DNA from: Chitinophagales bacterium
GTDB lineage: Bacteria > Bacteroidota > Bacteroidia > Chitinophagales > JABDMM01
Length of the DNA: 64,000 nucleotides
Reading direction: 5' to 3'
Assembly: GCA_013001465.1 (NCBI GenBank)
Contig: JABDMM010000128.1
Coordinates: 257-64,256 of the forward strand
Made by a program: the position numbers and the translations under genes. The notes under the pieces are model-generated. The model did no database searches. It was not told where the DNA came from and saw only the letters and a program-made list of their open reading frames with translations. The stretch's first letter is position 1. The number at the start of each line of letters is the position of its first letter. Below are positions 1-27,235 of this stretch, one piece after another.

Positions 1-378
1 GTCACCTTTTTTAAGTTCGATAAAATCTCTGCTGAACCAGGTGTTTTTTTGTTCCGCATCGATAACATTTTGCTTACAAACATCGATCATTTCATCTACG
101 ATATCAATTCCAACAACGCCTCCATTTTGCCTTGAGAAGTAAGCAAATTGCAGGAGCTCCATACCTCCGCCAATACCTACATACAAGACTTTAGGATTGT
201 TGACAAGATCTCTTGGATGCACGGTGCTGCCGCAGCCATAATTCATTTCGATCATCTTTTGTGGAATTTCTAATTCCGGAAGTTGCCATACTGGGTTGGT
301 GGTGCAACATAGGCCAATATCTGGACTTAATGCTGCTTTTTTATATACGTCGTAAGTAGTTTCTTTTAAACTGCTCAT
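1..378 (-). CDS. arsM: SAM-dependent arsenite methyltransferase (ArsM-like), N-terminal part; the gene continues past the left edge
   Basis: The open frame on the - strand runs off the window and is not in the ORF track because it has no stop. Translation is MSSLKETTYDVYKKAALSPDIGLCCTTNPVWQLPE...MNYGCGS...VLYVGIGGGMELLQFAYF (SAM motif I). The ATG at 378-376 overlaps the TGA of the upstream gene (ATGA). The context is ArsS plus a TIGR04282-like gene. Confidence 0.65.
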   Translation of the reverse strand, partial: MSSLKETTYDVYKKAALSPDIGLCCTTNPVWQLPELEIPQKMIEMNYGCGSTVHPRDLVNNPKVLYVGIGGGMELLQFAYFSRQNGGVVGIDIVDEMIDVCKQNVIDAEQKNTWFSRDFIELKKGD

Positions 379-989
379 GCGGTTGCCTTTTTCTTCAGTA
401 GTTCTTTATACTTTTTTAGATCTTCAAGTGTATCGACATCACTCAATTCTTGAAGCAGCAAATATTCATGCTGATTTGCTTTTAGTTTATCTATTGTTTT
501 TTCGAGAACAGACTCTGTACTCCACTCGATATCATGAAAAACATCCAGAGACTGTTTCATCCCTATAAGGTAGTATCCACCATCAGTAGCCGGACCCAAA
601 ACGCAATCCGTCCGGCTTAATTCAAAAAGTGCTCTTTCGACTGTTTTGGTATCCAATTCATAGCAGTCACTACCAACGATCACAGCTTGTTCATACCATT
701 GATCAAAGATGAGTTTAATAGCATTATCCATACGTTCTCCAAGATCTTTTCCATCCTGTAAAAACTTTTGATAATGTTCTTTTGGCCACATATCGTCTTC
801 GTCGATAAAATCGCTGTAGAAAATGAACTTATCGACGTTTACAGGATGTACAGTTTGAAAGGTCTTAATGAGCAGGTTTTTGTAAACTGTTAAAGCCGAC
901 TCGTCGCCAATATCCTCAGCCAATCTTGTCTTCACTTTAGAAAGTACAGGATTTTTTACAAAAATTATCAGTGCAGAATTTTCGATCAT
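375..989 (-). CDS. DUF2064 / TIGR04282-like 'glycosyltransferase', the rSAM-associated arsenosugar-cluster protein
   Basis: Motifs 'ALIIFVKNPVLSKVKTRL' and 'GPATDGGYYLIG' are typical of DUF2064. I place the start at the internal Met (MIENSALIIF, 989) rather than at 1049, because the longer ORF would overlap arsS by 50 nt. Confidence 0.7.
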   Translation of the reverse strand: MIENSALIIFVKNPVLSKVKTRLAEDIGDESALTVYKNLLIKTFQTVHPVNVDKFIFYSDFIDEDDMWPKEHYQKFLQDGKDLGERMDNAIKLIFDQWYEQAVIVGSDCYELDTKTVERALFELSRTDCVLGPATDGGYYLIGMKQSLDVFHDIEWSTESVLEKTIDKLKANQHEYLLLQELSDVDTLEDLKKYKELLKKKATA

Positions 990-999
990 TTTGATTTTT

Positions 1000-2046
1000 T
1001 TAGGTAACAGATCCACCACAACTCGAACCCGATCCTGCGGTGCAGCCAAAACAATGCCGGCCTACTTGAATTTCCCGTTGATCCAGAAATTCTGAATTAA
1101 AGTTGTTAAGATGCATGACTTTTCCATTTTGGATCTTCATATCCAGCATTTGATTAAAATCACAATCGTAAAGATAACCATCCCAACCAACAGAAATTGT
1201 ATTCCGACACATGACACCCACTGCAGCAGCTGGGTTGAATGCATCGATCAGTTTTTGCATGTAGGTTTCATAGTTTTGAGTTGCGATCAAATATTCCAAA
1301 AACCGACTCACCGGCAGGTTCGTAATATTAAAAAGACTGTTAAATTCTATGCTGAATTTCTCTTTCAAAGCTTTCTTAAAATCTCTTTCCAGTTGTTCCT
1401 GTGGTGCTGGTAAAAAAGCACCGGAAGGATTATATACAAGATTAAGTATCAACCCACTTCCTTCAATTCCATAACCGATCCCATTTAGCATTTGAAGCGC
1501 TTTGATCGATTTGTCAAATACTCCATTCCCTCGCTGTGCATCGGTTCTCGAGGCATCGTAGAATGGGAGAGAGGAGACTACTTCAATCTGATGTTTTTTA
1601 AAGAACTCCGGTAGATCGTAATAATTTCGGTTATGGAGAATGATGGTTAGGTTGCATCTAACAACGATATGCTTGTCCAGCTTTTTGATCTCTTCCACGA
1701 ACCATCTAAAGTCGGGATTCATTTCCGGGGCACCTCCAGTTAGATCGACTGTTTTAGCATTTGACTGCTCGATAGCTTTCAGACATAACTGCATGGTATC
1801 CCGGGTCATTATTTCTTTTCTGTCGGGCCCAGCATCCACATGACAGTGTTTGCATACCTGGTTGCACATCTTTCCAACGTTCACCTGAAAGATTTCAACA
1901 CCTACAGCATGCAATGTTTTTAACCCAATTTCCTCCAAAGAGGATTGAAAAGACTTTAGTTCGGATTTTTTATTCTCGAGCAGCTTGATCTGGTTCGATG
2001 GTTCCGATAATGGATTTTTTCTTTTTGCCAGTGATTTGACCGCCAT
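1000..2046 (-). CDS. arsS: Radical SAM / Cys-rich C-terminal domain protein, arsenosugar biosynthesis ArsS family (Cys form)
   Basis: CxxxCxxC motif 'CNQVCKHC'. Cys-rich tail '...RHCFGCTAGSGSSCGGSVT' is typical of the TIGR04167 family. The gene is flanked by ArsM, DUF2064 and AhpD-like genes. Confidence 0.8.
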   Translation of the reverse strand: MAVKSLAKRKNPLSEPSNQIKLLENKKSELKSFQSSLEEIGLKTLHAVGVEIFQVNVGKMCNQVCKHCHVDAGPDRKEIMTRDTMQLCLKAIEQSNAKTVDLTGGAPEMNPDFRWFVEEIKKLDKHIVVRCNLTIILHNRNYYDLPEFFKKHQIEVVSSLPFYDASRTDAQRGNGVFDKSIKALQMLNGIGYGIEGSGLILNLVYNPSGAFLPAPQEQLERDFKKALKEKFSIEFNSLFNITNLPVSRFLEYLIATQNYETYMQKLIDAFNPAAAVGVMCRNTISVGWDGYLYDCDFNQMLDMKIQNGKVMHLNNFNSEFLDQREIQVGRHCFGCTAGSGSSCGGSVT

Positions 2047-2049
2047 CGT

Positions 2050-2385
2050 TTACATGCTTATTTCTTTCGCTTTATTCATCATTTGAACGCTTGTTACGAG
2101 CTTTGTTCCTGCAGACATCGCCGATGCAACATGCACGGCTTCCATCATTTCTTCATTACTAACCCCTTTCTCTATAAGATCTGTTGTGTATGCATCGATA
2201 CAATATGGACATTGAGCGACATGTGATACCGCCAAGGCTATAAGTGATTTTTCCCTCGCGGTTAATGCACCTTCTTTGAAGACTGAGTTATAGTATTCGA
2301 AGAATTTGTCTGCGTACTCTTTTTGAAACTCACCGATCTTACCAAATTTCCTGAGGTCAGCCGGATCGAAATAGGTATTTGCCAT
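2050..2385 (-). CDS. AhpD/carboxymuconolactone-decarboxylase-like protein (arsenosugar-associated peroxidase-like protein)
   Basis: 111 aa with the 'CPYC' redox motif in 'SHVAQCPYCIDAY'. It lies 3 nt downstream of arsS. Confidence 0.7.
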   Translation of the reverse strand: MANTYFDPADLRKFGKIGEFQKEYADKFFEYYNSVFKEGALTAREKSLIALAVSHVAQCPYCIDAYTTDLIEKGVSNEEMMEAVHVASAMSAGTKLVTSVQMMNKAKEISM

Positions 2386-2390
2386 CTGTA

Positions 2391-3113
2391 TTATTCTATT
2401 GAGTTTAAATTCCAGTTATATTCTTTAAAGTTGATCTGTAAACCTTTTGGTAGATCATCTTTTCTGTAAATATTGATAAATGCAATGATATCCGCTTTTC
2501 CGTTAACCAGATAATCTTCCTTATACCATTCAAATAACTTCGAAAGCGAAACGCTGTTGCCATCTGCAGCTAATTCCACAAACGTATCGCTATGCACAAC
2601 ACGATGCGTTTGTTCTTTTAAAAGGTCTTCAACATTAGATTCATTGTATGCCCTCGATAATAATGGCGGGCAACCCTGTGCTGCACATACCAAAGCAAAA
2701 TGAGTTCTGGCGTCTCTATATCGCGGTCTGATGATCTCATTTTCCAACTTGCTTAAAGTTACCGGGATTCCTTCTACTAAATGCTCCTTTTGATTGAATA
2801 TTCCTTCAATGTCCAAAGGGGATTTAACCGGAAAATGATCAGAAACAGCTTTTATAATTAGAATGTTGTAAGCGTTTATATAAAAAGCTTTTTGTTTAGA
2901 TTCTGATATTCCATTAAGATCGGCTTTACCGATAGCGTCTACGAGTTCATCGATCAACTTAGGAGAAGCTTTCACCGAGGCATAATCAACTTGCCCGTCT
3001 ACAACATATGTCTTGAAAAACTTATCAGCATTCAGAAAAAAGGAGTTTAAACTTGAAGCTGAGACTTGATTCAGATTAAGGCTTAACAAAATGGCAATTA
3101 ACATGGTCTTCAT
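2391..3113 (-). CDS. DUF547 domain protein with signal peptide
   Basis: Motifs 'KAFYINAYNILIIK' and 'THFALVCAAQGCPPL' match the conserved DUF547 blocks. The N-terminus is hydrophobic. Confidence 0.7.
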   Translation of the reverse strand: MKTMLIAILLSLNLNQVSASSLNSFFLNADKFFKTYVVDGQVDYASVKASPKLIDELVDAIGKADLNGISESKQKAFYINAYNILIIKAVSDHFPVKSPLDIEGIFNQKEHLVEGIPVTLSKLENEIIRPRYRDARTHFALVCAAQGCPPLLSRAYNESNVEDLLKEQTHRVVHSDTFVELAADGNSVSLSKLFEWYKEDYLVNGKADIIAFINIYRKDDLPKGLQINFKEYNWNLNSIE

Positions 3114-3121
3114 AAGTGTTT

Positions 3122-4429
3122 TTAACTATTTAAATAAACGTTTGGTTCTTTCAATCTCTTAATATCTATGAAAATGACGATCATGAGGAGGATATACTCG
3201 GTGAAGATCACTGCCATAGGTAGATATGGAGGATCGAATTTATAAGCCATATAAGTAAAGAATATAAGTAAACTCCAGATCAAAGGAAACTTCAAATTGC
3301 AAATGACAGCTGCGGCTACTACCATCGATATATACCATGGGTGAATAGTGGTCGAAAAAAGAAAAAAGATCAACCATGAAAAACAGATCACCAGACCGAT
3401 AGATCTGAGATCTGATCTCTTTGTTAAAAACTGAAGTATCAAGATCAACACAATGGTTATGATAGGTAATAGTATTTTCAATTCCAGAAAGAGGTCATAT
3501 AGATTCATATAAGAAAACAGCCATTTGATGATTCCATAAATACTCGCGTTGAACTCAAAATAATCGTAGTAAAGAAACAGACTGTTTTGGATCGAGGAAA
3601 TATCAGAGACGTAAGGCAAGTGAAGTAGAATTATGGTTGCCAGGCAGCCTGCACCACCAATGAGAATTTTTTTTGGTTTTAAGCTAAACAGTAAATAGGG
3701 TATGAGGATCAAAGGTGTGATCTTACTGGCAATGGCGAGACCGAGAATAACTCCAGCCAGAAAATACCTTTTCTTCAGCATCAATAAAATAGCTGCCATT
3801 AAAAAACAGATGGCAAGTGCATCAAAATGAATATTACCGGAGAGCTCCAGAATGATAAGCGGATTTAAAGCATATATCAGAACATTGTTGGTATTGAGCT
3901 TTAAATATTTAACCAGTTTGAACATTGTAAATATTGTTAAGCACTCGGATACCCATATGATAAATTTTAAAGCGAAAACAGCTTTTAACGATCCAGGGAA
4001 TATTGCCGCTGCTACGAAAGCGGTGTACTGACAAACCGCAGGGTATACGGTAAAGAATCCCGGAGAATTTAGATCAGGATAGATCTTTTCCATCCAATCC
4101 TGATAACGGTTTTCATAGATGAATTCCGGGGTGTATGCGAAAGGATTGAACCCATTTAGCTGAAGGTTCCCGTCCCAAATGAAGCGCAAGTAGTCATCCG
4201 ATAGATTTGGTTCCAAAAATATGAGGATAAAACGGAGAAGAATTCCAGTACCAATCAATGCGTAGATCTTGAAACTGGATTTCCTGTCATTGAAGAAGAG
4301 TATCAAAAATGCAGCGAAACAAACGGAATATGATAGCATTAATAAATCGGTGTCCGTTCTTTGTGTGATCTGTGCGAAGAGCAGAGATATGATGAAAATG
4401 ATCACAGAAAAAGCAGAAATTGCTTTCAT
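3122..4429 (-). CDS. Polytopic membrane protein, GT-C-type (DUF2029/mannosyltransferase-like) glycosyltransferase
   Basis: 435 aa with more than 10 predicted TM helices and an early 'DDYLRFIWDG' loop of the acidic GT-C type. It is adjacent to GT2 genes. Confidence 0.5.
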   Translation of the reverse strand: MKAISAFSVIIFIISLLFAQITQRTDTDLLMLSYSVCFAAFLILFFNDRKSSFKIYALIGTGILLRFILIFLEPNLSDDYLRFIWDGNLQLNGFNPFAYTPEFIYENRYQDWMEKIYPDLNSPGFFTVYPAVCQYTAFVAAAIFPGSLKAVFALKFIIWVSECLTIFTMFKLVKYLKLNTNNVLIYALNPLIILELSGNIHFDALAICFLMAAILLMLKKRYFLAGVILGLAIASKITPLILIPYLLFSLKPKKILIGGAGCLATIILLHLPYVSDISSIQNSLFLYYDYFEFNASIYGIIKWLFSYMNLYDLFLELKILLPIITIVLILILQFLTKRSDLRSIGLVICFSWLIFFLFSTTIHPWYISMVVAAAVICNLKFPLIWSLLIFFTYMAYKFDPPYLPMAVIFTEYILLMIVIFIDIKRLKEPNVYLNS

Positions 4430-4431
4430 GC

Positions 4432-5931
4432 TCAGCGTTGCATTCGTGTTAAAACAAAGTGGTAGATAGAAGCCCCAAAGATCGATGCAAAGCCTAAAAA
4501 CAACATAATATGAAAAGGAAGTAAACCGAAATCTTTGATCTTAAAAGCATACAGGATGGCTCCCAGAAAGTAAAATGTTAAGATACCCTCGAGAATGGTC
4601 GTGACTTCAATTTTCTGTTTTAGGTATTTGTTTTTCTTCCAGCTGTCAGAAATTGACTTGATATCAAACTTTGGCGTTCTTATAAATGGTGATCTTTTAC
4701 CAATAAGTCCTTTCACAACTGCAATTGAATTGTGGAGAGATAAGCCCATAGAAAAACAGAGGAATGTTGGAAACATAGTCAGAAAATACACTAGATTCTG
4801 CTTTTTACTTTTATTCCTGATCTCAAGTGAATTGACGTAAAAGAATATCAATATCAGAAAAGCGACAAGGAAGGATGACCCGGCAATGAATAATGGTTTC
4901 CATTCCGGGTAGGTATTTTTTATCATGATGGCCGGAAAACTCAGTATTGCTGTAAGTAGCACAAATATGAAGATGGTAGAGTTCAATAGGTGAGCTATTC
5001 CATGAAATTTCTGACCCCAGGATATTTTCGAGGACATAAGATTTTTGATATGTTTTTTGGCGGTTTCTGCACCTCCTTTTGTCCATCTATATTGTTGAGA
5101 TTTGATTGCACTCATAACTGCAGGCAGCTCTGCAGGGGCTACAACATCTTCAAGGAATAAAAATTTCCAACCTTTCATTTGGGTTCTGTAGCTAAGGTCG
5201 AGGTCTTCGGTAAGTGTATCTGCTTCCCAGCCGCCACCGTCATAAATGGCGGATTTTCTCCAAACACCGGCTGTTCCGTTAAAATTCATAAAGTATCCTC
5301 TGCTATTCCTACCCGCTTGCTCAACTGAAAAGTGAGCATTCAAATGAAAGGCTAGTGCTTTTGTAAAAATGCTATAGTCTTCGTTTATATGCCCCCAGCG
5401 TGTTTGAACCATCCCAATTGATTTGTCCTGAAAGCTAGGGATAGTCTTTTTTAAAAAATCTTTTTCCGGGAGAAAGTCGGCATCAAAGATCGCGACGAAT
5501 TCACCTTTAGATCTCTCCAACCCATACTGCAGTGCACCGGCTTTAAATCCAGTCCTTTTAGGTCTGCGAATATGCTTGATATCTATACCTCTGGCGGCTA
5601 TTTCTTTACATTTAGCTTCTGCAATGGCGAAGGATTCATCTGTTGAATCGTCCAGAACCTGTATCTCAAGCTTATCACGTGGGTAATCAAATTCAGAGAC
5701 CTTTTCGAGCAGTCTTTCGGTTACATATAACTCGTTATAAAGGGGAAGTTGAACTGTTGCCGTAGGAAGTTGGTCTTCTGCTAATATTGATCTATAAGTT
5801 CCGTTGCTTCCTTTTTTCTTTCTGGATCTTCTGTACACATAGGTGAGGTGGAGCTGGATAAAACTGTAGACTAGAATGAAGGTCAGGCTGAATGCGTAAA
5901 GAAAGAGTATTGAGATTACGATAACTTTCAT
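4432..5931 (-). CDS. Membrane-bound processive family-2 glycosyltransferase (cellulose/chitin/glucomannan-synthase-like)
   Basis: N-terminal TM helix, 'DDSTD', 'DADF', 'TEDLDLS', a 'QQYRW' (QxxRW) motif and C-terminal TM helices. Confidence 0.75.
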   Translation of the reverse strand: MKVIVISILFLYAFSLTFILVYSFIQLHLTYVYRRSRKKKGSNGTYRSILAEDQLPTATVQLPLYNELYVTERLLEKVSEFDYPRDKLEIQVLDDSTDESFAIAEAKCKEIAARGIDIKHIRRPKRTGFKAGALQYGLERSKGEFVAIFDADFLPEKDFLKKTIPSFQDKSIGMVQTRWGHINEDYSIFTKALAFHLNAHFSVEQAGRNSRGYFMNFNGTAGVWRKSAIYDGGGWEADTLTEDLDLSYRTQMKGWKFLFLEDVVAPAELPAVMSAIKSQQYRWTKGGAETAKKHIKNLMSSKISWGQKFHGIAHLLNSTIFIFVLLTAILSFPAIMIKNTYPEWKPLFIAGSSFLVAFLILIFFYVNSLEIRNKSKKQNLVYFLTMFPTFLCFSMGLSLHNSIAVVKGLIGKRSPFIRTPKFDIKSISDSWKKNKYLKQKIEVTTILEGILTFYFLGAILYAFKIKDFGLLPFHIMLFLGFASIFGASIYHFVLTRMQR

Positions 5932-5934
5932 TAT

Positions 5935-6627
5935 TCAGACTGCATGTTTTATAATAGTAGTTATGATCTTATAACCGGCGAGGATAGTGCCTTTGAAAGT
6001 GCCACTCACTTTAGAAACACCAATTCTCTCTCTATAACGCACCGGAATCTCGGTAACATTTAACTTTTGTTTTAAAGCTTTAACCTGCATTTCAACAGTC
6101 CAGCCATAAGTTTTGTCGGTCATTTGTAGCTGGAGGAGCTTGCCTACTTTGATCGCTCTGAACGGACCGAGATCGGTAAACTCATACCCATAAATGAATT
6201 TCATCATTTTCGTAGCTAACCAATTTCCGAAGATCTGTTGTGGAGTCATAGAATTCTTTGCCCGTCCTGCTTTATTCCGCGCACCTATCACAAGATCGTA
6301 TTCATTATGAGTTATAGGGTCGATCAATTGGATCATATCTTCCGGATAGTCAGAAAAATCGCCGTCCAAAAATACTACAATATCTTTATGGCTTGTATTT
6401 AGCTTAGTAATTAAATGATCTATCCCTTTTAAACAAGCATTGCCATACCCCTTTTTTTCTTCGTATAGAACAATAGCTCCTGCATTGCGAGCATTTTGCG
6501 ATGTGTTATCCGAAGAAGCATTGTCAACAACAATGATTTCTTTTACAAATTGAGGAATGGCCTCAATGACTTTTACGATGGACTCTTCCTCATCGAGTGC
6601 CGGAATAATTACATATACCTCGTTCAT
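5935..6627 (-). CDS. Small soluble family-2 glycosyltransferase (Dpm1/polyprenol-phosphate glycosyltransferase-like)
   Basis: Motifs 'VIIPALDEEESI', 'VVDNASSDNT' and 'FLDGDFSD'. 230 aa. Confidence 0.7.
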   Translation of the reverse strand: MNEVYVIIPALDEEESIVKVIEAIPQFVKEIIVVDNASSDNTSQNARNAGAIVLYEEKKGYGNACLKGIDHLITKLNTSHKDIVVFLDGDFSDYPEDMIQLIDPITHNEYDLVIGARNKAGRAKNSMTPQQIFGNWLATKMMKFIYGYEFTDLGPFRAIKVGKLLQLQMTDKTYGWTVEMQVKALKQKLNVTEIPVRYRERIGVSKVSGTFKGTILAGYKIITTIIKHAV

Positions 6628-8045
6628 TATTTGATTCCAGTGAATTCAGGCATTTCTAATTTTCTACTATCCTGAGGACCATTTTCAAGTTTTAAAACAC
6701 CTCGCGGACATACCGCAGCACAGATACCACACCCAACACAAGAAGCACGTACTACATCCTGGCCTCGCTGTGCGTACCATCTTACATCGATACCCATTTC
6801 ACAATAAGTTGAACAATTTCCACATGAAATACACTGAGAACCATTTGTTGTGATCCTGAATTTCGAGAAATACTTTTGTTGAATACCTAGAATAGCAGCC
6901 ATCGGGCATCCAAAGCGACACCAAACCCTACTACCCATCAAAGGATAGAATCCAACACCAATTACTCCTGCGAAGATAGAACCGATAAGGAAACCGTAAA
7001 CTTTTCTAACCCAGTAGGTATCAACACCGAGAAATTTTCCGCTTCCGGAAAAGTAGGTATATAGCGTAAGAATAGTCATGATCACTACTATAACAAGGAC
7101 TAAATGGATCATCCATCGCTCGATCTTCCATGCTTTAAGTGATTTATCTGAAAGGTGCCTGAAGGGATCACCTGCTGTTTCTGCAAGTCCGCCACAACCG
7201 CAAACCCATGAACAATACCAACGTTTTCCAAAAAAGAAAGCAAGGATCGGGGAGACAACAAAGATCATGAGCAAACCCCAAACCAGCATCATCAATCCGA
7301 TCAAACCGGATTTCTCATTCATGATAGTAGACAGATCCATACTTTGTTTAAACCCGGGATCGATCATCTTATCCAGATTGTAGCTATCGAAAAAGTAATA
7401 GTTCAATGGCCACATATTTTTCCAGTCATAGTAAGGTAAGGATTCATTCAACGTATACATGATCTCGGGTAACATAAATGCAAATCCAAACTGGAAGAAC
7501 ATCACCGAGATCGTTCGAAATATCTGATAACTGTTATGGCGGTATTTCATTATGAATTTTACACCCATGATGAGGATTGCAAAGGTGTACAAGACTCCAT
7601 ATACAAACCATTGACTAGCCGCTTCACCTTTGATCATATAGCTTATAGGATCAAACATTTTGATGAGCGATATATTTGCACCATCTGGATTATAGCCAAG
7701 AAGTGAAGGGAAAAAGTAAAGACAAACATAGAATGCGGTGATAAGAATACCCGTGATCCAGCCAATGGTCCCTCTGTTAGTCAGACTATTAAACCAGAGG
7801 TTATTGTTTTTAATCCCGTCCGGATGGTGAGCATATGTTTCATAAGTGAACCATAGCGTTCCGATAGTCATCAATGTAAGCGACGGCCAAAGAAAGTTTG
7901 ATGTATTGAATAAATTACCTGAGAGCCAGGCCAGAAAGATCAGGAAAACGCCTACTACTGCAAGTCCAAGACTTATTCTTTGTCTGGCCGTCAGAGTCGC
8001 TCCATCAGAGTTAGCTATTGATAGGCTGTTTGTCGAGTTTCCCAT
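6627..8045 (-). CDS. Polytopic membrane 4Fe-4S protein (NapH/NosR-like)
   Basis: Multiple TM helices. CX3C(P/G) motifs 'CSWVCG' and 'CRFGCP'. Two ferredoxin motifs, 'CISCGNCSTYC' and 'CVGCGICAAVCP'. Confidence 0.7.
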   Translation of the reverse strand: MGNSTNSLSIANSDGATLTARQRISLGLAVVGVFLIFLAWLSGNLFNTSNFLWPSLTLMTIGTLWFTYETYAHHPDGIKNNNLWFNSLTNRGTIGWITGILITAFYVCLYFFPSLLGYNPDGANISLIKMFDPISYMIKGEAASQWFVYGVLYTFAILIMGVKFIMKYRHNSYQIFRTISVMFFQFGFAFMLPEIMYTLNESLPYYDWKNMWPLNYYFFDSYNLDKMIDPGFKQSMDLSTIMNEKSGLIGLMMLVWGLLMIFVVSPILAFFFGKRWYCSWVCGCGGLAETAGDPFRHLSDKSLKAWKIERWMIHLVLVIVVIMTILTLYTYFSGSGKFLGVDTYWVRKVYGFLIGSIFAGVIGVGFYPLMGSRVWCRFGCPMAAILGIQQKYFSKFRITTNGSQCISCGNCSTYCEMGIDVRWYAQRGQDVVRASCVGCGICAAVCPRGVLKLENGPQDSRKLEMPEFTGIK

Positions 8046-8047
8046 GA

Positions 8048-9388
8048 TCAGGTATTTATCAGGTTTAAAAATGCTGAGAACCCTCTTTTTTTCAGTTTTA
8101 AATTTGCATTGAACTCTTCATTATACTTTTTGATCAGTTTCTTTTCGTATGATCGATAGAATTCGGGATCAAAACTACTCGCTCCAAGATTTTCGATCAC
8201 ATAATCCATGGTGCGTTTCTCTTTTAACCATTTATGAAAAAGATCGTGCCGTGCTCGTATTCCAAACAAGTTGATGCCTTTTAGCTCTGTTGTATCTTTA
8301 TTATATACAAAATGAACACAGCGTTTACCGTCGTCATCCTCCCAATAGAATGAGTTTTCATCCGCTTTATTCTTGGGATATACCGTTCCATATGTCTGAT
8401 ATTCTATATCAAGAAATTTAGCGGAATTGAACCACGGGCCAGGATTATATTGGTCATCGTTATTGTCTGCAATATTTTTTCCAAGAATTTCACCATGCAT
8501 TTTGCCTGTGTACCAAACCTGCTCAATGTTCCTGCGCCCCGGCGGAGGGTCTCTAAACTCCGCACAATCTCCAATTGCATAAATATCAGGAATATTGGTT
8601 TCGAATCTTTTATTGATTAAGATTCCACGCTTTGTTTCAATGCTCGAATTCGATAACCAGCTAATGTTCGGACTTACACCTGCTGTGAGACAAACGAGCT
8701 GTGTGTTTACTAATTCACCGGATTTAGTTTTAACTGCTTTGACGCGCCCGTTTTCATCCGGAAGAATTTTATCCAGCTCTTCTCCGAGTCGCAGGTCAAA
8801 TCCATGCTCTCGTATATGTCGGCTTATCAAATCCGATTCTCCTGGTGGTAAAACATTATCCCAATAGCTTTTTTCTCTCACAAGTAGAGTGGTGGGTATT
8901 TTTCTTGACTGAAGCATTTCTGCTAATTCGATTCCGATTAGGCCTCCTCCCACGATCACCGCTCTGTCAACCTTTCTGTTCGTGTTTTGCTCCAACTGTT
9001 GCAAGTCTTGATAAGAGTAAAGCGATTGCACACCATCAAGGTCCTGTCCATGCCATCCGAATAAATTTGATCGTGAACCGCATGCTATGATCAGTTTATC
9101 ATAATTTATTCTGAAGCCATTGGATCTTACAAGCTGTTTATTATCCGTGTCGACTTCGGTAATCCAATCGCGAAGCAGATCAATGCGATTTTTTTCCCAA
9201 AACCAGTCTTCATAAGGCTTTGTATGATGGTATTCCATATGCCCCATATAGATATACATGAGCGCTGTACGTGAGAAAAAGTAATCTGTCTCTCCGGAAA
9301 CTAACAGGATCTCATGATCAGAACGTTTTCTGATATGTCTTGCTGCTGTGACTCCGCTGATCCCGTTTCCAATGATCACGATCTTCAT
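8048..9388 (-). CDS. FAD/NAD(P)-dependent pyridine-nucleotide-disulfide-type oxidoreductase
   Basis: Two Rossmann motifs, 'KIVIIGNGISGVTAA' and 'RAVIVGGGLIGIELAE', plus 'IYAIGDCAE'. Confidence 0.75.
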   Translation of the reverse strand: MKIVIIGNGISGVTAARHIRKRSDHEILLVSGETDYFFSRTALMYIYMGHMEYHHTKPYEDWFWEKNRIDLLRDWITEVDTDNKQLVRSNGFRINYDKLIIACGSRSNLFGWHGQDLDGVQSLYSYQDLQQLEQNTNRKVDRAVIVGGGLIGIELAEMLQSRKIPTTLLVREKSYWDNVLPPGESDLISRHIREHGFDLRLGEELDKILPDENGRVKAVKTKSGELVNTQLVCLTAGVSPNISWLSNSSIETKRGILINKRFETNIPDIYAIGDCAEFRDPPPGRRNIEQVWYTGKMHGEILGKNIADNNDDQYNPGPWFNSAKFLDIEYQTYGTVYPKNKADENSFYWEDDDGKRCVHFVYNKDTTELKGINLFGIRARHDLFHKWLKEKRTMDYVIENLGASSFDPEFYRSYEKKLIKKYNEEFNANLKLKKRGFSAFLNLINT

Positions 9389-9461
9389 CCGCTTAACATT
9401 TTATGGAGTTCATTCATAGGTTGTATGAAGATATTTAAACCAGATCAACAGATGAAACCAT

Positions 9462-10274
9462 CTATGTCAAAAGGTGGGTTATGATATTTGTTAGTTTAGG
9501 TTGAGTGTTGTTTGCTACCTCAATTATTTCTGCAACGTTTACTTTTTTTATTTTGCCGGCAACCCCAAGATCGGTAATGATAGAAATGCCAAAAACATTA
9601 ATGTCAGCATGCCTTGCTACGATGACTTCCGGAATGGTAGACATACCAACAGCATCAGCACCGATTGTTCTAAGGAATTTATATTCAGCAGGTGTTTCGA
9701 GATTCGGACCCATTACCGAAACATAAACTCCTTTTCGAACAGGGTAGTTGTTTGATTTGGCAAATTCATATGCCTTCATAACCAGCGAAGGGGAATAGGC
9801 ATTTAGCATATCTGGAAATCGCGGACCGAATTCTTCCAGATTTTTTCCTATCAATGGATTACCGGGTAGAAGATTAATGTGATCCTCAATGATCATGATA
9901 TCACCAATATTGTATTCAGGATTCAAACTACCACTGACATTAGAGATAAAAAGATCCGACACGCCGAGCAATTTCATGATCCGGACTCCAAATGCTACTT
10001 CTTCCATGCTGTAGCCTTCATAAAAATGAAATCTTCCTTGCATTACTACAACATCTTGCCCTTCCAGTTGGCCAAAAATCAGTTTCCCTTTGTGTGATTC
10101 GACAGTGGAAAGAGGAAAGTGAGGAATATCGCTATAATCAATGGAATGATCGATATCAATTCTTGCTACCAGTTCGCTTAAGCCGGTTCCCAGAATAATT
10201 CCCTTACGGATTTCAGAATCAACAAACTTGCGGATGAAATCGAATGACTCTTTATAGTGTTTATATTCGAACAT
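9462..10274 (-). CDS. punA: Purine nucleoside phosphorylase (trimeric PNP/PunA type)
   Basis: Motifs 'GIILGTGLSELV', 'GRFHFYEGY', 'GMSTIPEVIVARH' and 'ISIITD'. Confidence 0.8.
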   Translation of the reverse strand: MFEYKHYKESFDFIRKFVDSEIRKGIILGTGLSELVARIDIDHSIDYSDIPHFPLSTVESHKGKLIFGQLEGQDVVVMQGRFHFYEGYSMEEVAFGVRIMKLLGVSDLFISNVSGSLNPEYNIGDIMIIEDHINLLPGNPLIGKNLEEFGPRFPDMLNAYSPSLVMKAYEFAKSNNYPVRKGVYVSVMGPNLETPAEYKFLRTIGADAVGMSTIPEVIVARHADINVFGISIITDLGVAGKIKKVNVAEIIEVANNTQPKLTNIITHLLT

Positions 10275-10339
10275 ATTGCTTATAATTCGTAAAATAGAAT
10301 CATAATAAACCGGCGGTAAGATAAATTTTAAATTGCATT

Positions 10340-12316
10340 ATGCCAACCAAGAAGGTTAAAGACAAAGATCCTAAATGGCAGAAGTTAGTGTTCATGGCAG
10401 TTTTGGCGATTCTGCCATTCATTGCATTTCATCCTGTGCTGGATGCTGATTTTATCAATCTTGATGATGGGAGATTCATCCAAAACAATACTGTAGTCAA
10501 CGAGGGAAGCCTTTCTAATATACCTCAGGCTTTTAAGGAACAAATATTCACACCTCACTATAAACCACTGGTATACACAAGCTGGATAATAGAAGCGACA
10601 TTGTTTGGAATGGATCCATTTATCTATCACTTCGATAACCTTCTTCTTCATATTCTGAACACTTTTTTGATATTCTTTATTTTTCAAAAATTGCTAGCCA
10701 GAAGCAAAATCGATGAGCACCATATCATGATAGCTGCTTTTTTTGGGGCTTTATTGTATTCTTTACACCCTTTTAAGGTAGAATCAGTTGCCTGGGCAGT
10801 TGAAAGAAAAGATGTGCTCTTTTCTTTCTTCCTTTTTTCAGGGATGCTATCGTATATCACATACATAGATAGTAAGAAGCGGAAATATTTGTTTCTGACG
10901 ATGGGGTTTTATATCCTGACCCTGCTATCAAAATCGATGGGCATTTCCCTGATCATTATCGTTTTCTTATTGGATTTTCTATATGCACGAAAGTTCGGAA
11001 AGCGACTATTTGTTGAGAAGGTCCCATTCATAATAATTGTAGTAGCAGCCTTGTTCATTTATGGAATCTTCGAAAAATATGACCGTGTTACTCTCGGTGT
11101 TACGGAGGGACTTTTATCTGAGGAACAACAGGTGATACAACCGGAAAACTTCGATGGGTTACATCCTTTCTATAAGCAATTTCTCGTGATGAACTATAGA
11201 ATGATAGGTTTCGTCGCACATTTTGTTTATCCCACGAAATTATCAATAACATATCCACGAGCTTACTATCTGGATATGGTCGGTGGTTTCATTCATGCTT
11301 TACCATTTCTAAACTTGCTTTTACTTCTGGGGATATTATGGATGTGGCAAAGGGCGAGATGGTTAGCTTTTGGTGCTGCTTTCTATTTCCTCACCATATT
11401 TCCTGCGCTCATGATGGGAGACAAAGGAACAAATTTCTTACCGGATAGATACGTTTATATGCCTTCATTTGGGTTGGTGTTTCTGTTCATAACAGCTGTG
11501 TTTACATATGTATCAGAGCGGTATTTCAAACTTTCCCTTGCACTATTGTCGGTAGTTATAATGCTATGTAGTTATAGTGTTTTTAACTACAGCCATGCAT
11601 GGAAAGATAGTTTAACCCTATGGTCTGATGCTATCGAGAAGTATCCGGGAATGCTTGAAGTTGCCTATAAAAACAGAGGTTTAGAATATAGGAAAAGGAA
11701 CAGAATGGATCTGGCTTTACAGGATTATCTCATTCTCGAAAAAATGCGAGTAAGGGAGGCAGGTGTTTATGGTAATATTGCAAACATATATGGCAGTTTG
11801 CAGAATTTTGATAAGTCCCAGGAATATTACACAAAAGCCATTCAGCACGATGAAAATTATGCTACAGCTTACTTGAACCGCGGAATTACCTATGCACAAA
11901 GAAAAATGTTTGACCTTGCTTTTGCGGATTTTCAGAAAGCTTATTCGTTAGATTCTACTTCCCCTAAACTGTTAGAAAGCTATGCTTATGCTAACTTTGA
12001 AGTCGGAAATTATGCGCTCTCAACTAAACTTTACTCTGAACTGATCAATGCCGGAGTTCAGCTGGAACGAGTTTACTTTCAACGTGGATTAGCATTTTTT
12101 AGCGCTAAAGAATTTACAAAAGCCGTTGAAGATTTTATACAAGTAGTCTCTTTTAACCCTTCCAATCAGGATGCTCTGTATAATATTTCCGCTTCTTACT
12201 TTCAGCTTGGGGAGTATTCCAAAGCGATGGATTTTGCAAACAGAGCTGCACAAAATGGTTTTAATGTTCCTCAGTCCTTTTATCAGAAGATTCAAGAGGG
12301 GTTACAAGCTGAATAG
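10340..12316 (+). CDS. Membrane protein with N-terminal GT-C/PMT-like (TMTC-like) domain and C-terminal TPR repeats
   Basis: About 400 aa polytopic N-terminal region, then TPR-like repeats (e.g. 'AYLNRGITYAQRKMFDLAFADFQKAYSLD'). Confidence 0.55.
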   Translation: MPTKKVKDKDPKWQKLVFMAVLAILPFIAFHPVLDADFINLDDGRFIQNNTVVNEGSLSNIPQAFKEQIFTPHYKPLVYTSWIIEATLFGMDPFIYHFDNLLLHILNTFLIFFIFQKLLARSKIDEHHIMIAAFFGALLYSLHPFKVESVAWAVERKDVLFSFFLFSGMLSYITYIDSKKRKYLFLTMGFYILTLLSKSMGISLIIIVFLLDFLYARKFGKRLFVEKVPFIIIVVAALFIYGIFEKYDRVTLGVTEGLLSEEQQVIQPENFDGLHPFYKQFLVMNYRMIGFVAHFVYPTKLSITYPRAYYLDMVGGFIHALPFLNLLLLLGILWMWQRARWLAFGAAFYFLTIFPALMMGDKGTNFLPDRYVYMPSFGLVFLFITAVFTYVSERYFKLSLALLSVVIMLCSYSVFNYSHAWKDSLTLWSDAIEKYPGMLEVAYKNRGLEYRKRNRMDLALQDYLILEKMRVREAGVYGNIANIYGSLQNFDKSQEYYTKAIQHDENYATAYLNRGITYAQRKMFDLAFADFQKAYSLDSTSPKLLESYAYANFEVGNYALSTKLYSELINAGVQLERVYFQRGLAFFSAKEFTKAVEDFIQVVSFNPSNQDALYNISASYFQLGEYSKAMDFANRAAQNGFNVPQSFYQKIQEGLQAE

Positions 12317-13187
12317 ACAAGTCTGAGCGATAGTAAAAGTATATGAAAAGAGCACTTATCGCACACAAGATGTGCCACACCGCATGTCCCTGAAGAACAG
12401 AGTATGGAGAACACAACAGATCTGTGAAATCAAGAATCCACATTGCACCTGCCAATACGATACTGACAAGTCCAATTCCAAGATATCTTAAGAAAGCCTT
12501 AGCATGAGCTCCTGATCTGATAATCATATATTTTAAGACAAAAGTGATAAACACTATAAGTGGAAAGAGATAGTTAATATTCAGCTTCCATACATAGAAG
12601 TAGAATAACAAAAATATGAGTATTGCCGCAGGGATAATCACATGGTGTGAGTCCCTTTCTTTTGCTTTAAACTTATATTTTGGAAACAGAACATAGGTGT
12701 TGTACGCCAGAATGCTGATCATCAAGGCATAGATTCCGGTGATATCCATTTTCTGGAAAAAATACGTTAGCGATGCATGATAAAAAAAGCTTCCGAAAAA
12801 AACATATATGCAAGATATACCCATCATAATTGAGAAGGCAGGATATTTGACGATCAAGCTTTGAGTGTTTATTTTTCTTCTTCTGAAATCATTGATCCCG
12901 AAGGTTAGGCTGATGAGTCCAACGATAAGGAAGCCAAGGTTAGACCAGGTATTGATGGGCTGTCTGACAGAACACGGACCACGATCTAATTCACAAAAAC
13001 TATAGGCATTGCCAAAAGCAGCTTCCCAACCTCCCCAAATGTTATGAGACTTATAGGCGTCCAGAAAAACAATAAGTAGACCTGTAATGGCTATAAAAAG
13101 AGCTATTGAGTAGTAGTAGGTTGATATATTATGGTGTAAAATGTTGAGCTGTCTTCTGATGTACCTATACCTTACTACTATTCTCAT
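12261..13187 (-). CDS. Integral membrane hydrolase, alkaline ceramidase-like family
   Basis: 7-TM pattern with 'TWSNLGF', 'FFYHASLTYFFQKMD' and 'HAVWHILCA', which resemble ceramidase/PAQR conserved His/Asp blocks. Confidence 0.45.
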   Translation of the reverse strand: MRIVVRYRYIRRQLNILHHNISTYYYSIALFIAITGLLIVFLDAYKSHNIWGGWEAAFGNAYSFCELDRGPCSVRQPINTWSNLGFLIVGLISLTFGINDFRRRKINTQSLIVKYPAFSIMMGISCIYVFFGSFFYHASLTYFFQKMDITGIYALMISILAYNTYVLFPKYKFKAKERDSHHVIIPAAILIFLLFYFYVWKLNINYLFPLIVFITFVLKYMIIRSGAHAKAFLRYLGIGLVSIVLAGAMWILDFTDLLCSPYSVLQGHAVWHILCAISALFIYFYYRSDLSIQLVTPLESSDKRTEEH

Positions 13188-14769: not shown

Positions 14770-16106
14770 TTAAAGAATGATTCAACGTCATGGATGCATT
14801 CCGGTAAGCTTAATACAACTACTCTGTCATCGGCTTTGATCCAGAAATCTCCTAATGCAATATATCCTTTTCCGTTTCTAATGACGCCACCAACTAAAGC
14901 ACCTTTCGGGAACTTAAGATCCTGGATCGACTTCTTTGTTACCTTGGAATTTTTTTTCACCTCAAACTCGAGGACTTCAGCATCAACTCCATGAATCCCA
15001 GCTAGCGAAACGATTTCACCTTTTCGGATGTATCGGAAAATAAAGTTAGCTGCGATAAGTTTCTTGTTGATCATCGTATCCACACCGATATTCTGTGATA
15101 GGTGAATGTAATCGGTATTCTCTATCAAAGCGATCGTTTTCTTTACACCGTGATTTTTAGCAACAAGGCATGAAATAATATTAGTTTCCGAATTACCGGT
15201 AACAGCTATGAAGGCATCCATATCTTCTATTCCTTCTTCTTCCAATAACTCGACATCGGACCCATCCCCGTTGATGATAAGTGTGTTCGGTAATTTATCT
15301 ACTAACTCAAAACATTTATCTCTCTTTGCTTCTATCAACTTTACTTTATAAAGTTTACTGAGCTTTTTTGCACTGTGTATTCCAACATCACTTCCTCCGA
15401 GTATCATGATCTTCTTAATATCCACTTTTTCTTTAGCCGCAAGATTTATGATCTTCTCAATGCCGCTTTGGAGAGAAATGAAGTAGACATTGTCATTGAT
15501 CTTAAATTTTGTGTTCCCTCTGGGAATGATCGTTTTATTGTTTCTAAGAATACATGCGGTAATGAAGTCATTTTCTTTATTGAGGTGGGAGGTTGAATTT
15601 ATGGTCTTATCCTCAATGGGAGCATGATTATCGATATTGATGCCGATCATGTTCAATAAGCCATTATCGAATTCAAAAGTATCAGTGAGCGCTGAAGTTT
15701 TAAGTAAACGCTTAATTTCACGTGCAGCAAGTGATTCGGGTGAAATCAATTCGTCTATACCTAATTTTGCAAGATCGAGTTTGTCTTTCGCGAATAGAAA
15801 TTCTGTATTGCTGATACGCGCTACAGTGCGCTTTGCTCCGAGATGCTTCCCTATGATAGCGGTAGCAAGGTTTGTTTCTTCACTATTTGTAACTGCGAGA
15901 AGAAGATCAGCTTTTTTGACACCAGCGTCCTCCAAGGTAGAAAATGATACGCTGCTTCCTTTTAGAGTAGCAACATCGATATGGCTTTCCGCATATCTTA
16001 ATTTAGATTTATCAATGTCTACCAGCACAATATCCTGCTTTTCATAAGAGAGGAGTTTCGCCAGATGAAACCCAACATCTCCAGCTCCTGCGATTATTAT
16101 TCTCAT
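14766..16106 (-). CDS. trkA: Trk system NAD-binding subunit
   Basis: Duplicated RCK/TrkA-N domains ('MRIIIAGAGDVG', 'IMILGGSDVG'). The stop overlaps the trkH start by 4 nt. Confidence 0.85.
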   Translation of the reverse strand: MRIIIAGAGDVGFHLAKLLSYEKQDIVLVDIDKSKLRYAESHIDVATLKGSSVSFSTLEDAGVKKADLLLAVTNSEETNLATAIIGKHLGAKRTVARISNTEFLFAKDKLDLAKLGIDELISPESLAAREIKRLLKTSALTDTFEFDNGLLNMIGINIDNHAPIEDKTINSTSHLNKENDFITACILRNNKTIIPRGNTKFKINDNVYFISLQSGIEKIINLAAKEKVDIKKIMILGGSDVGIHSAKKLSKLYKVKLIEAKRDKCFELVDKLPNTLIINGDGSDVELLEEEGIEDMDAFIAVTGNSETNIISCLVAKNHGVKKTIALIENTDYIHLSQNIGVDTMINKKLIAANFIFRYIRKGEIVSLAGIHGVDAEVLEFEVKKNSKVTKKSIQDLKFPKGALVGGVIRNGKGYIALGDFWIKADDRVVVLSLPECIHDVESFFK

Positions 16107-16996
16107 CCTAATGGTAAATTTATACTACCTGATCTGGTTTTAAAGCTATCTAAGTGGTATATATTTTTAAACAATTCCATAACCGACCCTTTTTCAAGTT
16201 CGAAAATTATAAAGAATCCTCCACCACCTGCACCACATAGCTTCATTGCGTATTTACTGCTTTCGATACCTTGTTTCCAGGGTTTCAAAACCTCCTCAGG
16301 GATCATATCGGTGAAGAGTCTTAGCTGAAGTTTTGAAACATGAAGAAGTTCTTCATTGCTTGCAGGAACTTCATCCCACATCTCCGAGATCAGATTTTCT
16401 GTTAGATCGCAGTATTGTCCTGTGAACAGTTCACTATATTCTTTGAGCTTTAGATTTTCCAAAAAAAGCGGAACCAGATTGCCCTTATTTCTTGATATAC
16501 CTGAATGCCACAAATAAATATTGTTAACTAAACAAAGGCTGTCTTTTGTCATAATTTCACCATTCCTGATCACAATTGCTTTGTTCAAGTATGAGATCAG
16601 CGGATCGAAACCAGAACTCTTTCCATGGAAGAAAGACTCCATTGCTGCAAAAGTTTTTTTGAGTTCATGGATCGAGATGTCTTTTTTCAATCCATAAGTG
16701 TCGTATACAGCCGCAACCACAGCGCCGGAACTTCCCAGTCCTGACCCTACCGGAATACTGGATTCGATTCCCCAACCATTGTCAATATCCTGCTTCAAAT
16801 TTTCGAAATCTAAAGCGATATCATTTTCTTTCCAATATTCGATCGGTTCTTTAAAATTGAGATCGATGCTATTACTTTGTGAAAAGTGAACAGTCATCTT
16901 AGGATATGGTATAGCAAGTGCGGATCCTTGTTTTACAACGGAGTATTCTCCAAACAGAAGTACTTTGGAAGGATAGCGCTTGCTTGAATCTATCAT
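16103..16996 (-). CDS. mvk: Mevalonate kinase (GHMP kinase)
   Basis: N-terminal 'KVLLFGEYSVV', GHMP motif 'PVGSGLGSSGAVV' and 'KLCGAGGGGF'. It sits in the mevalonate cluster. Confidence 0.75.
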   Translation of the reverse strand: MIDSSKRYPSKVLLFGEYSVVKQGSALAIPYPKMTVHFSQSNSIDLNFKEPIEYWKENDIALDFENLKQDIDNGWGIESSIPVGSGLGSSGAVVAAVYDTYGLKKDISIHELKKTFAAMESFFHGKSSGFDPLISYLNKAIVIRNGEIMTKDSLCLVNNIYLWHSGISRNKGNLVPLFLENLKLKEYSELFTGQYCDLTENLISEMWDEVPASNEELLHVSKLQLRLFTDMIPEEVLKPWKQGIESSKYAMKLCGAGGGGFFIIFELEKGSVMELFKNIYHLDSFKTRSGSINLPLG

Positions 16997-18033: not shown

Positions 18034-18053
18034 CCCACTTTATTTGTTTGCTA

Positions 18054-24797: not shown

Positions 24798-24869
24798 GAT
24801 AGTGCTTTACCCAAAAGTACGTATAGGAAATCGAGATAGTTCTGAATTAGACCGAATAATATTCACAGT

Positions 24870-25949: not shown

Positions 25950-25965
25950 TTATTTATTGATTTAA

Positions 25966-27234: not shown

Positions 27235-27235
27235 A

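Follow-up and report, generated by a model that had tools for sequence, protein, structure and literature searches.

The first 10,274 nucleotides (nt) of a 64,000-nt stretch of DNA from a Chitinophagales metagenome-assembled genome (MAG), this whole stretch being called the window (contig JABDMM010000128.1, 64,369 bp), carry on the minus strand 11 open reading frames (ORFs), in which the core genes of arsenosugar biosynthesis stand together with genes for a purine nucleoside phosphorylase (PNP), three glycosyltransferases (GTs), a DUF547 protein and a pair of redox proteins. This array is a real, recurrent and so far undescribed extended variant of the known arsenosugar cluster. The original prediction, made from the bare sequence of the window, had described 11 co-directional ORFs with mostly tight junctions, and the coordinates, an ATGA overlap and the 73-nt gap all match. 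The features, as assigned by hidden Markov models (HMMs), motifs and spacing, are the following:

1–378, minus strand: ArsM, N-terminal fragment of 126 amino acids, cut by the window/contig end (NF038099 match)
375–989, minus strand: TIGR04282/DUF2064 protein, nucleotidyltransferase fold of the CofC/MobA kind (TIGR04282, DUF2064 and CofC HMMs)
1000–2046, minus strand: radical S-adenosylmethionine (SAM) enzyme ArsS (TIGR04167 and DUF3641 HMMs)
2050–2385, minus strand: AhpD-like CxxC protein (TIGR04169 HMM)
2391–3113, minus strand: secreted DUF547 protein (PF04784 HMM)
3122–4429, minus strand: membrane glycosyltransferase of the GT-C fold (Pfam GT87)
4432–5931, minus strand: membrane GT2 of the processive synthase type, QQYRW (Pfam GT2 families and motifs)
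5935–6627, minus strand: small soluble GT2, DGD88 (sub-cutoff resemblance to AglJ/Dpm1)
6627–8045, minus strand: NapH-like iron-sulfur (Fe-S) membrane polyferredoxin (Fer4 families; NapH sub-cutoff)
8048–9388, minus strand: soluble FAD/NAD(P)H oxidoreductase (Pyr_redox_2)
9389–9461, minus strand: the sole sizeable intergenic gap of the array, 73 nt (sequence read)
9462–10274, minus strand: PNP of the trimeric family (NF006054 HMM)
10275–10339, no strand: divergent intergenic region of 65 nt, likely the promoter region of the array (spacing between the PNP gene and a plus-strand gene)

The TIGR04282 ORF has an ATG at position 989, the mechanically called ORF opening at TTG 1049. From the contig end, which cuts arsM, the junctions are the ATGA overlap at 375–378, then gaps of 10, 3, 5, 8, 2, 3, -1 and 2 nt, and the one of 73 nt, and except for this last one they all lie between -4 and +10 nt. 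Judged from this spacing alone, the 11 genes are probably co-transcribed. A sequence scan found no terminator-like site within any junction of the array, the 73-nt gap included, and nine such sites in the region as against 7.0 ± 2.8 expected from shuffling, but the sigma-70 consensus does not apply to Bacteroidota and the scan for promoters and terminators, with counts at or below the shuffle expectation, is thus uninformative on transcription units. An Rfam scan of the 64-kb window gave 0 matches, hence no riboswitch or known leader.

The arsenosugar core of ArsM and ArsS is known from Synechocystis through work by Cheng et al. (2021), which PMC12159101 and PMC13598754 cite. In the window, all three complete core proteins (ArsS, the TIGR04282 protein and the AhpD-like protein) are above the curated HMM cutoffs, in accordance with the identities predicted for them. 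The radical SAM protein is indeed ArsS by the equivalog model TIGR04167, with 448.4 bits at a cutoff of 300 and coverage of model positions 3–303 of 303; it also matches DUF3641 (PF12345, 184.5 bits) and PF04055 (33 bits), and the radical SAM motif CX3CX2C is present (C61NQVC65KHC68). The AhpD-like protein, encoded 3 nt from ArsS, scores 172.5 bits against TIGR04169 (cutoff 120) and contains C59PYC62. The TIGR04282 protein reaches 196.9 bits at a cutoff of 134, as well as 102 bits with Pfam DUF2064 and 27 bits with Pfam CofC (cutoff 22), and its only and nearest relative in the PDB is 3cgx, a 'putative nucleotide-diphospho-sugar transferase'. The ArsM fragment, with cysteines at C24, C25 and C49, scores 190.5 bits over positions 3–124 of NF038099, a model with a whole-protein cutoff of 400 of which the 126 amino acids in the window can cover only this part, and full-length orthologues that are 66–71% identical to the fragment (in loci L025 and L046 of the comparison described below) score 553–566 bits at the same cutoff. 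The Synechocystis ArsS converts trivalent dimethylarsenic, DMAs(III), and SAM to 5'-deoxy-5'-dimethylarsinoyl-adenosine (DDMAA), in a reaction that is reported to be redox-neutral after priming and in which the adenosyl group is retained in the product, 5'-deoxyadenosine being an abortive by-product only (PMC13598754). By its family assignment, and with this biochemistry published for the Synechocystis enzyme only, the ArsS of the window can be expected to perform the same adenosylation of DMAs(III).

The recurrence of the array was examined with 80 genome loci anchored on ArsS, almost all from Bacteroidota, and 80 metagenome loci anchored on the Fe-S membrane protein, and the ORFs of these 160 loci (with identifiers of the type L001) and of the window were clustered into families. 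The 11 gene families of the window are 11 of the 13 most recurrent ones (ranks 0–9 and 12). The AhpD-like gene is found directly upstream of ArsS in 74 of the 80 ArsS-anchored loci and TIGR04282 occurs in 54; PNP and ArsM follow with 32 each, TIGR04283 with 26, a secreted rhodanese with 23, DUF547 with 21, and the FAD, Fe-S and GT genes with 6–8 each. The only other strongly recurrent families are TIGR04283 (209 bits at a cutoff of 182), the secreted rhodanese (NF045521), a glycoside hydrolase of family GH113, and a protein of the fatty-acid-hydroxylase family, and none of these four has a homologue in the 64-kb window. The rhodanese was considered as an arsenate reductase of the Acr2/Cdc25 type and set aside, its loop C-S-V-G-I-R being of the short rhodanese type. 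Two TIGR04282 paralogues are encoded in the ArsS loci L015, L016, L021, L049, L055, L066 and L080, one upstream of AhpD and the other after the rhodanese, which suggests two distinct activation or transfer steps. Some ArsS neighbourhoods also have genes for a PHO4 phosphate transporter (L005, L017, L044, L057, L059), a glyoxalase/ArsI-like protein (L021, L025, L030, L035, L046), an ArsH-like FMN reductase (FMN_red; L010, L013, L052), a MerA-like disulfide reductase, or a metallophosphoesterase.

The families fall into two modules, an arsenic core AhpD-ArsS-(rhodanese)-TIGR04282-PNP-ArsM (module A) and a separable FAD-FeS-GT2-GT2-GT-C unit (module B), which are bridged by DUF547, TIGR04283, GH113 and the fatty-acid hydroxylase. 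In the canonical extended order, seen for instance in L061, L070, L094, L129, L137 and L154, AhpD-ArsS-(rhodanese)-TIGR04282-PNP-ArsM is followed by (FA hydroxylase)-DUF547-TIGR04283, a GH113 gene in the opposite direction, and FAD-FeS-GT2-GT2-GT-C, and the bridge of DUF547, TIGR04283 and GH113 is found in these loci, in L024 and in others. Module B lies directly downstream of PNP/ArsM in L033, L039, L042, L074, L101 and L159 (Salegentibacter, Autumnicola, Antarcticibacterium and others); in the window, as in L028 from Cesiribacter, it lies on the upstream side of AhpD-ArsS, and in Pontibacter (L015, L016, L026) the GT trio alone is present, on the opposite strand. The synteny of the GT, redox and PNP genes with arsM/arsS in other genomes, on which the original prediction had made itself dependent, was thus found in many Bacteroidota, as was that of DUF547. 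As the two modules have been joined repeatedly, in at least four gene orders and in Chitinophagales, Cytophagales and Flavobacteriales, function is the better explanation than inherited synteny. In some loci the junctions between the modules are also as tight as those within them, the PNP and FAD genes overlapping by 1 nt in L101 and standing 6 nt apart in L042 (99 nt in L039), and five loci show overlaps of 10 and 8 nt along ArsM-DUF547-TIGR04283. With moderate confidence, the array can be regarded as the compact form of a recurrent Bacteroidota supercluster that consists of the arsenosugar core, a dedicated PNP, and a separable membrane glycosylation module.

A dedicated role of the PNP is suggested by its active site. 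The enzyme belongs to the trimeric family by NF006054 (359 bits at a cutoff of 218) and TIGR01700 (319 at 293), and reaches 82 bits with TIGR01694, the model of 5'-methylthioadenosine (MTA) phosphorylase, MTAP, at a cutoff of 275. In human PNP, Asn243 reads the 6-oxo group of the base, and the exchange N243D moves the preference to adenosine; His257 hydrogen-bonds the 5'-hydroxyl. Enzymes of the MTA phosphorylase type recognise the base through an Asp and are hydrophobic in the 5' pocket. In an alignment (human numbering) of 43 cluster-linked copies, human PNP and three bacterial PNPs of solved structure, all 43 copies have Leu200, Asp243 and Ile, Val or Leu at position 257, the window copy being L/D/V, whereas canonical PNPs combine Asn243 and His257 with Phe or Tyr at position 200; the Asn243–His257 combination of the 6-oxopurine type is therefore missing in the window copy and in the 42 others. 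With His257 replaced by Val or Ile, the hydrogen bond to the 5'-hydroxyl would be lost and the 5' pocket would be hydrophobic. Among the 150 nearest 50%-identity cluster representatives that phmmer retrieved from the full library, about 130 of them full-length, the Leu/Asp/aliphatic signature occurs in about 14 of the full-length ones (~11%), and other triads are YNH or FNH (46), LN plus an aliphatic residue (21), and YDH or FDH (9). The solved bacterial PNP of PDB entry 4lna also has the signature, as Leu200/Asp243/Leu257. Because the signature is uniform in the cluster copies and uncommon among the nearest representatives, the cluster PNP is, as far as can be read from its residues, a distinct subtype fitted to a 5'-substituted adenosine such as the product of ArsS, and the predicted role as the enzyme that releases the ribosyl moiety gains support from the signature in 43 of 43 copies.

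It is conceivable that the PNP is not part of the pathway at all and clears 5'-deoxyadenosine or MTA with salvage of the adenine, or that it feeds As(III) to ArsM through an arsenate reduction that is driven by arsenolysis. The Asp243/aliphatic257 pocket also fits the two nucleosides, some ArsS loci contain PHO4 phosphate/arsenate transporters, and PNP-dependent arsenate reduction has been reported for mammalian PNP in vitro (review PMC12608789). This nevertheless appears improbable. The adenosyl group becomes part of the ArsS product, 5'-deoxyadenosine being formed only abortively (PMC13598754), and arsenolysis requires no altered base or 5' pocket. Also, PNP is wedged between TIGR04282, its same-strand neighbour in 33 of the 41 PNP-bearing loci, and ArsM, its neighbour in 22 of the 41, which fits an in-line step better than a clean-up function.

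Of the three glycosyltransferases that had been named in the window, two were correctly classified by Pfam models and motifs, namely the GT-C enzyme and the processive QxxRW GT2, and the label 'Dpm1-like' for the third one lies below the curated cutoffs. The GT-C protein matches Pfam GT87 with 30.2 bits (cutoff 25), has about 11 transmembrane (TM)-like segments and PIG-M as PDB match, and is far from the MptA equivalog (49 bits, cutoff 439). GT-C enzymes need lipid-phosphate-linked donors, i.e. sugars on polyprenyl phosphate. The large GT2 (499 amino acids) contains DAD150 and QQYRW279, one N-terminal and about five C-terminal TM-like segments, and is thus of the processive type; its nearest PDB sequence is BcsA (78 bits), and it stays below the CelA and PgaC equivalog cutoffs (121 bits against 699 and 107 against 422). 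The small GT2, a soluble protein of 230 amino acids whose gene adjoins that of the processive GT2 in 41 loci, resembles AglJ (124 bits, cutoff 325), dolichyl-phosphate hexose transferase (67 bits) and TIGR04283 (35 bits), in each case below the cutoff. TIGR04283, the arsenosugar GT2, is itself absent from the window, the small and the large GT2 scoring 35 and 20 bits at a cutoff of 182, and a tblastn search of the 64 kb with TIGR04283 members gave only a weak match to the small GT2, which by its sequence would be the nearest relative of this family in the window.

Between the glycosyltransferases and the arsenic core lies the gene of the DUF547 protein, which is the gene most tightly bound to both modules. 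The protein scores 76.4 bits against PF04784 (gathering cutoff 27), and its invariant residues are E124, H138, C143-x4-C148-P149, D200 and R217. Its AlphaFold (AF2) model is of high quality, with a predicted local distance difference test score (pLDDT) of 94.9 and a predicted template modelling score (pTM) of 0.89, and Foldseek found no fold match for it in the PDB (best E = 3.2), so the modelled domain appears to be a fold without a solved representative. The FAD protein matches Pyr_redox_2 with 166 bits, has 3klj, CoADR, and rubredoxin and putidaredoxin reductases as PDB neighbours, and is of the ferredoxin-reductase/NirB-N type. A CoA-disulfide-reductase type was ruled out for it, as there is no N-terminal redox cysteine (cysteines only at 103, 233, 275 and 357). 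The Fe-S protein contains the motifs CSWVCGC and CRFGCP, two CX2CX2CX3C motifs and about six TM-like segments. Its cysteine pattern is that of NapH, and 'NapH-like' means here a resemblance below the curated cutoffs, as the protein scores 60.6 bits (cutoff 213) and 57 bits (cutoff 234) with the NapH/MauN models and is a member of neither family; its AF2 model (pLDDT 54) was too poor for a fold search. Our best guess for DUF547 is that it acts in a periplasmic thiol-dependent step that is fed by the FAD-FeS chain.

The FAD and Fe-S genes adjoin in 71 loci, and they do so frequently without any other gene of the array. Such lone pairs are found in L165 (8674–11392), L166 (8763–11365), L082, L095, L096, L106, L111, L116, L130 and L136, usually together with a small divergent protein that bears a C-terminal sorting domain of the type IX secretion system (T9SS), and represent an uncharacterised conserved unit. 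The original prediction had the redox genes supply electrons at the membrane, and a supply for the arsenic chemistry is not indicated by this distribution. In one possible reading, the oxidoreductase and the polyferredoxin would reduce the [4Fe-4S] cluster of ArsS, or keep the thiols of the AhpD-like and DUF547 proteins reduced and the arsenic substrate trivalent. The ferredoxin-reductase-like nature of the one protein and the polyferredoxin nature of the other would suit such a function, and in the window both genes are co-directional with ArsS. It is nonetheless most improbable, as there is no ArsS within 10 kb in 75 of the 80 Fe-S-anchored loci, the pair is present in only 7–8 of the 80 ArsS loci, and ArsS adenosylation is reportedly redox-neutral once primed (PMC13598754). 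The FAD protein, the NapH-like Fe-S protein and the secreted DUF547 protein rather form a general redox triad of the glycosylation module, and not of arsenic chemistry as such.

How closely module B is linked to arsenic could be assessed with those Fe-S loci whose flanks reach 8 kb or more upstream and 4 kb or more downstream (n = 34), 17 of which have GT genes and 17 do not. A strict ars gene, i.e. ArsS, AhpD, TIGR04282 or ArsM within 10 kb, is present in 8 of the 17 GT-bearing loci, any linked gene in 11, and DUF547 in 14, as compared to an ars gene in 2 and DUF547 in 2 of the 17 GT-less loci. The arsenic link thus belongs to the GT-bearing and DUF547-bearing version of the locus, and FAD-FeS is a redox unit of general use. 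In an average-linkage identity tree, the Fe-S proteins from GT-bearing and GT-less loci do not form clean separate clades. To view the whole GT/redox block as an integral part of the arsenic machinery, as had been proposed, was therefore overstated, since the block is separable.

Several observations weigh against the supercluster as a functional unit. In about half of the informative GT-bearing module B loci, the 10 kb around contain no ars gene; close Fe-S homologues, 62–66% identical to that of the window, occur in bare FAD-FeS pairs (Membranihabitans and other genomes), beside the small T9SS-tailed protein; DUF547 paralogues also occur alone, and in Marinoscillum (L163) DUF547 is found with only the FAD-FeS pair. 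The L200/D243/aliphatic257 pocket of the PNP would be just as suitable for MTA or 5'-deoxyadenosine. A TM anchor is missing in the small GT2, which stays under all curated cutoffs and matches in the PDB only GpgS (34 bits), a type of small-molecule GT. In other loci, finally, GH113 stands beside the synthase-type GT2, which points to an ordinary beta-glycan as product. It is thus possible, if on the whole unlikely, that the product of module B is a common beta-glycan or glycolipid of the envelope, such as a mannan-type polymer whose side chains are added with the help of a lipid carrier, and that the module never touches arsenic, its proximity to the arsenic core being due to shared regulation, a genomic island or lineage synteny. 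In addition to the loci without ars genes and the solitary FAD-FeS pairs and DUF547 genes, such a function would agree with the combination of GH113 and a BcsA-like GT2, which recalls synthase/hydrolase pairs, and with the GT87/PIG-M/MptA-like GT-C and the AglJ-like GT2, which hint at mannose-type chemistry. However, inheritance of synteny does not explain the at least four gene orders in three Bacteroidota orders, the inter-module junctions are tight or overlapping, overlapping ORFs couple the translation of DUF547 to that of ArsM and TIGR04283, the Pontibacter GT trio accompanies ArsS even without FAD-FeS, and the ars genes follow the GT-bearing and not the GT-less Fe-S loci.

A possible pathway can be drawn from these assignments. 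ArsM would, by its family, methylate As(III) to DMAs(III), and ArsS would adenosylate the latter to DDMAA, as expected from its family and from published biochemistry. The PNP could then phosphorolyse DDMAA with inversion, which would give adenine and alpha-5-deoxy-5-dimethylarsinoyl-ribose-1-phosphate, and the TIGR04282 protein might turn this arseno-ribose-1-phosphate into a nucleoside diphosphate (NDP)-sugar; it is a candidate for the activating enzyme because of its CofC/MobA-like fold and its near-constant adjacency to PNP. Natural arsenosugars have the beta-riboside configuration. Such a beta-riboside would result if an inverting GT2 moves the arseno-ribosyl group, which in most relatives may be TIGR04283 and here the small AglJ/Dpm1-like GT2. 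More speculatively, the small GT2 may load polyprenyl phosphate, since GT-C enzymes use lipid-phosphate-linked donors, and the GT-C enzyme may move the sugar to an acceptor at the outer face, perhaps the product of the QxxRW GT2, be it a polymer or a glycolipid. The full course, in which NDP-activated arseno-ribose passes via polyprenyl phosphate and GT-C to an arsenic-bearing envelope glycan or glycolipid, by analogy to the mycobacterial decaprenyl-phosphoribose pathway and with PNP and TIGR04282 as the missing enzymes of adenine removal and activation, is a tentative and rather doubtful proposal. The envelope-anchored glycoconjugate or arsenolipid that the original prediction favoured over a free arsenosugar is accordingly plausible, but a minority possibility.

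In comparison to known systems, the array is closest to the arsenosugar core and its NCBIfam neighbour set (TIGR04167, TIGR04169, TIGR04282, TIGR04283, NF038099). The window shares with it ArsS, TIGR04169 and TIGR04282 above cutoff, an ArsM fragment of the NF038099 type, and the adjacency of AhpD and ArsS, but it lacks TIGR04283 and adds the PNP subtype, DUF547, the FAD/Fe-S pair, and three further glycosyltransferases. Like MTAP/MtnP and 5'-deoxyadenosine phosphorylase, which belong to the same PNP/UDP superfamily, the PNP would phosphorolyse a 5'-substituted adenosine to adenine and a 5-substituted ribose-1-phosphate; unlike MTAP, it is by sequence of the trimeric PunA type, and its 5' substituent is presumed to be dimethylarsinoyl. 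The proposed TIGR04282 step would resemble the nucleotidylyl activation of sugar-1-phosphates in known systems. A small GT2 adjoining a GT-C is also found in GtrB/GtrC, in ArnC/ArnT, in Ppm1 with GT87/PimE-type enzymes, and in the mycobacterial decaprenyl-phosphoribose/arabinose route, and with this last one the array would share a ribose-derived sugar as well, if the arsenic link holds. In contrast to these lipid-carrier pairs, the window has no recognisable flippase gene, its small GT2 is anchorless and sub-cutoff, and the FAD/Fe-S/DUF547 triad has no counterpart there. The large GT2 resembles the synthases of the BcsA/BcsZ and PgaC/PgaB systems in its D, DxD and QxxRW motifs, its N- and C-terminal TM helices and, in other loci, the secreted GH113 companion, but it has only 499 amino acids, there is no PilZ domain and there are no partner subunits, and GH113 is missing in the window. 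The Fe-S protein is similar to the polyferredoxins of the NapH/CcoG type in that a multi-TM protein carries two CX3C(P)-type and two 4Fe-4S motifs and has a soluble FAD/NAD(P)H reductase as partner; it differs in that no nap, nos or cco genes are nearby, in having at its N-terminus a unique membrane domain (about 250 amino acids), and in its partners, the FAD gene being constant and DUF547 frequent. NCBIfam names only the core and TIGR04283, and in the searchable literature no paper was found that gives any of the seven additional genes a part in arsenosugar synthesis or describes the supercluster, in line with the earlier statement that these genes have no assigned role in the pathway, and the literature search also gave no paper on later arsenosugar steps, DDMAA, the TIGR families or DUF547 that bears on these genes.

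Outside the array, the plus-strand gene that diverges from PNP at a distance of 65 nt (10340–12316) encodes a protein of 658 amino acids with about eight N-terminal TM segments and a C-terminal array of tetratricopeptide repeats (TPR). It resembles a second membrane protein of the GT-C/PMT style, and a weak homologue (25% identity) adjoins ArsS in the Chitinophagales MAG locus L043. The next gene (12261–13187, minus strand) encodes a multi-TM protein with 58 bits to Pfam Ceramidase, which is Per1-like and hints at lipid remodelling; it is found in no related locus. Mevalonate genes for a GHMP kinase, a diphosphomevalonate decarboxylase and HMG-CoA reductase are located at 16103–20337 (minus strand), and homologues of the GHMP kinase and the decarboxylase lie just past the GT-C gene in the Fe-S-anchored loci L107, L125, L131, L137, L149, L152 and L154, which may reflect synteny within the lineage or a connection with the supply of polyprenyl. 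A NosD-like beta-helix protein, followed by HlyD-type and MacB/FtsX-type efflux components (23583–28471, minus strand), is apparently unrelated to the array.

To our knowledge, only ArsM and ArsS are defined in arsenosugar biosynthesis, and the removal of the adenine and the joining of the aglycone have been open since the pathway was proposed. For these later steps the cluster now gives specific enzyme candidates, namely the PNP subtype, the CofC-like nucleotidyltransferase, and several inverting GT2 enzymes. As a by-product, a widespread Bacteroidota triad of DUF547, an FAD reductase and a membrane polyferredoxin has been defined. Heterotrophic Bacteroidota abound in soils and oceans and may be major overlooked producers of complex organoarsenicals that are possibly cell-bound, and this, if true, would affect the interpretation of marine and soil arsenic cycling.

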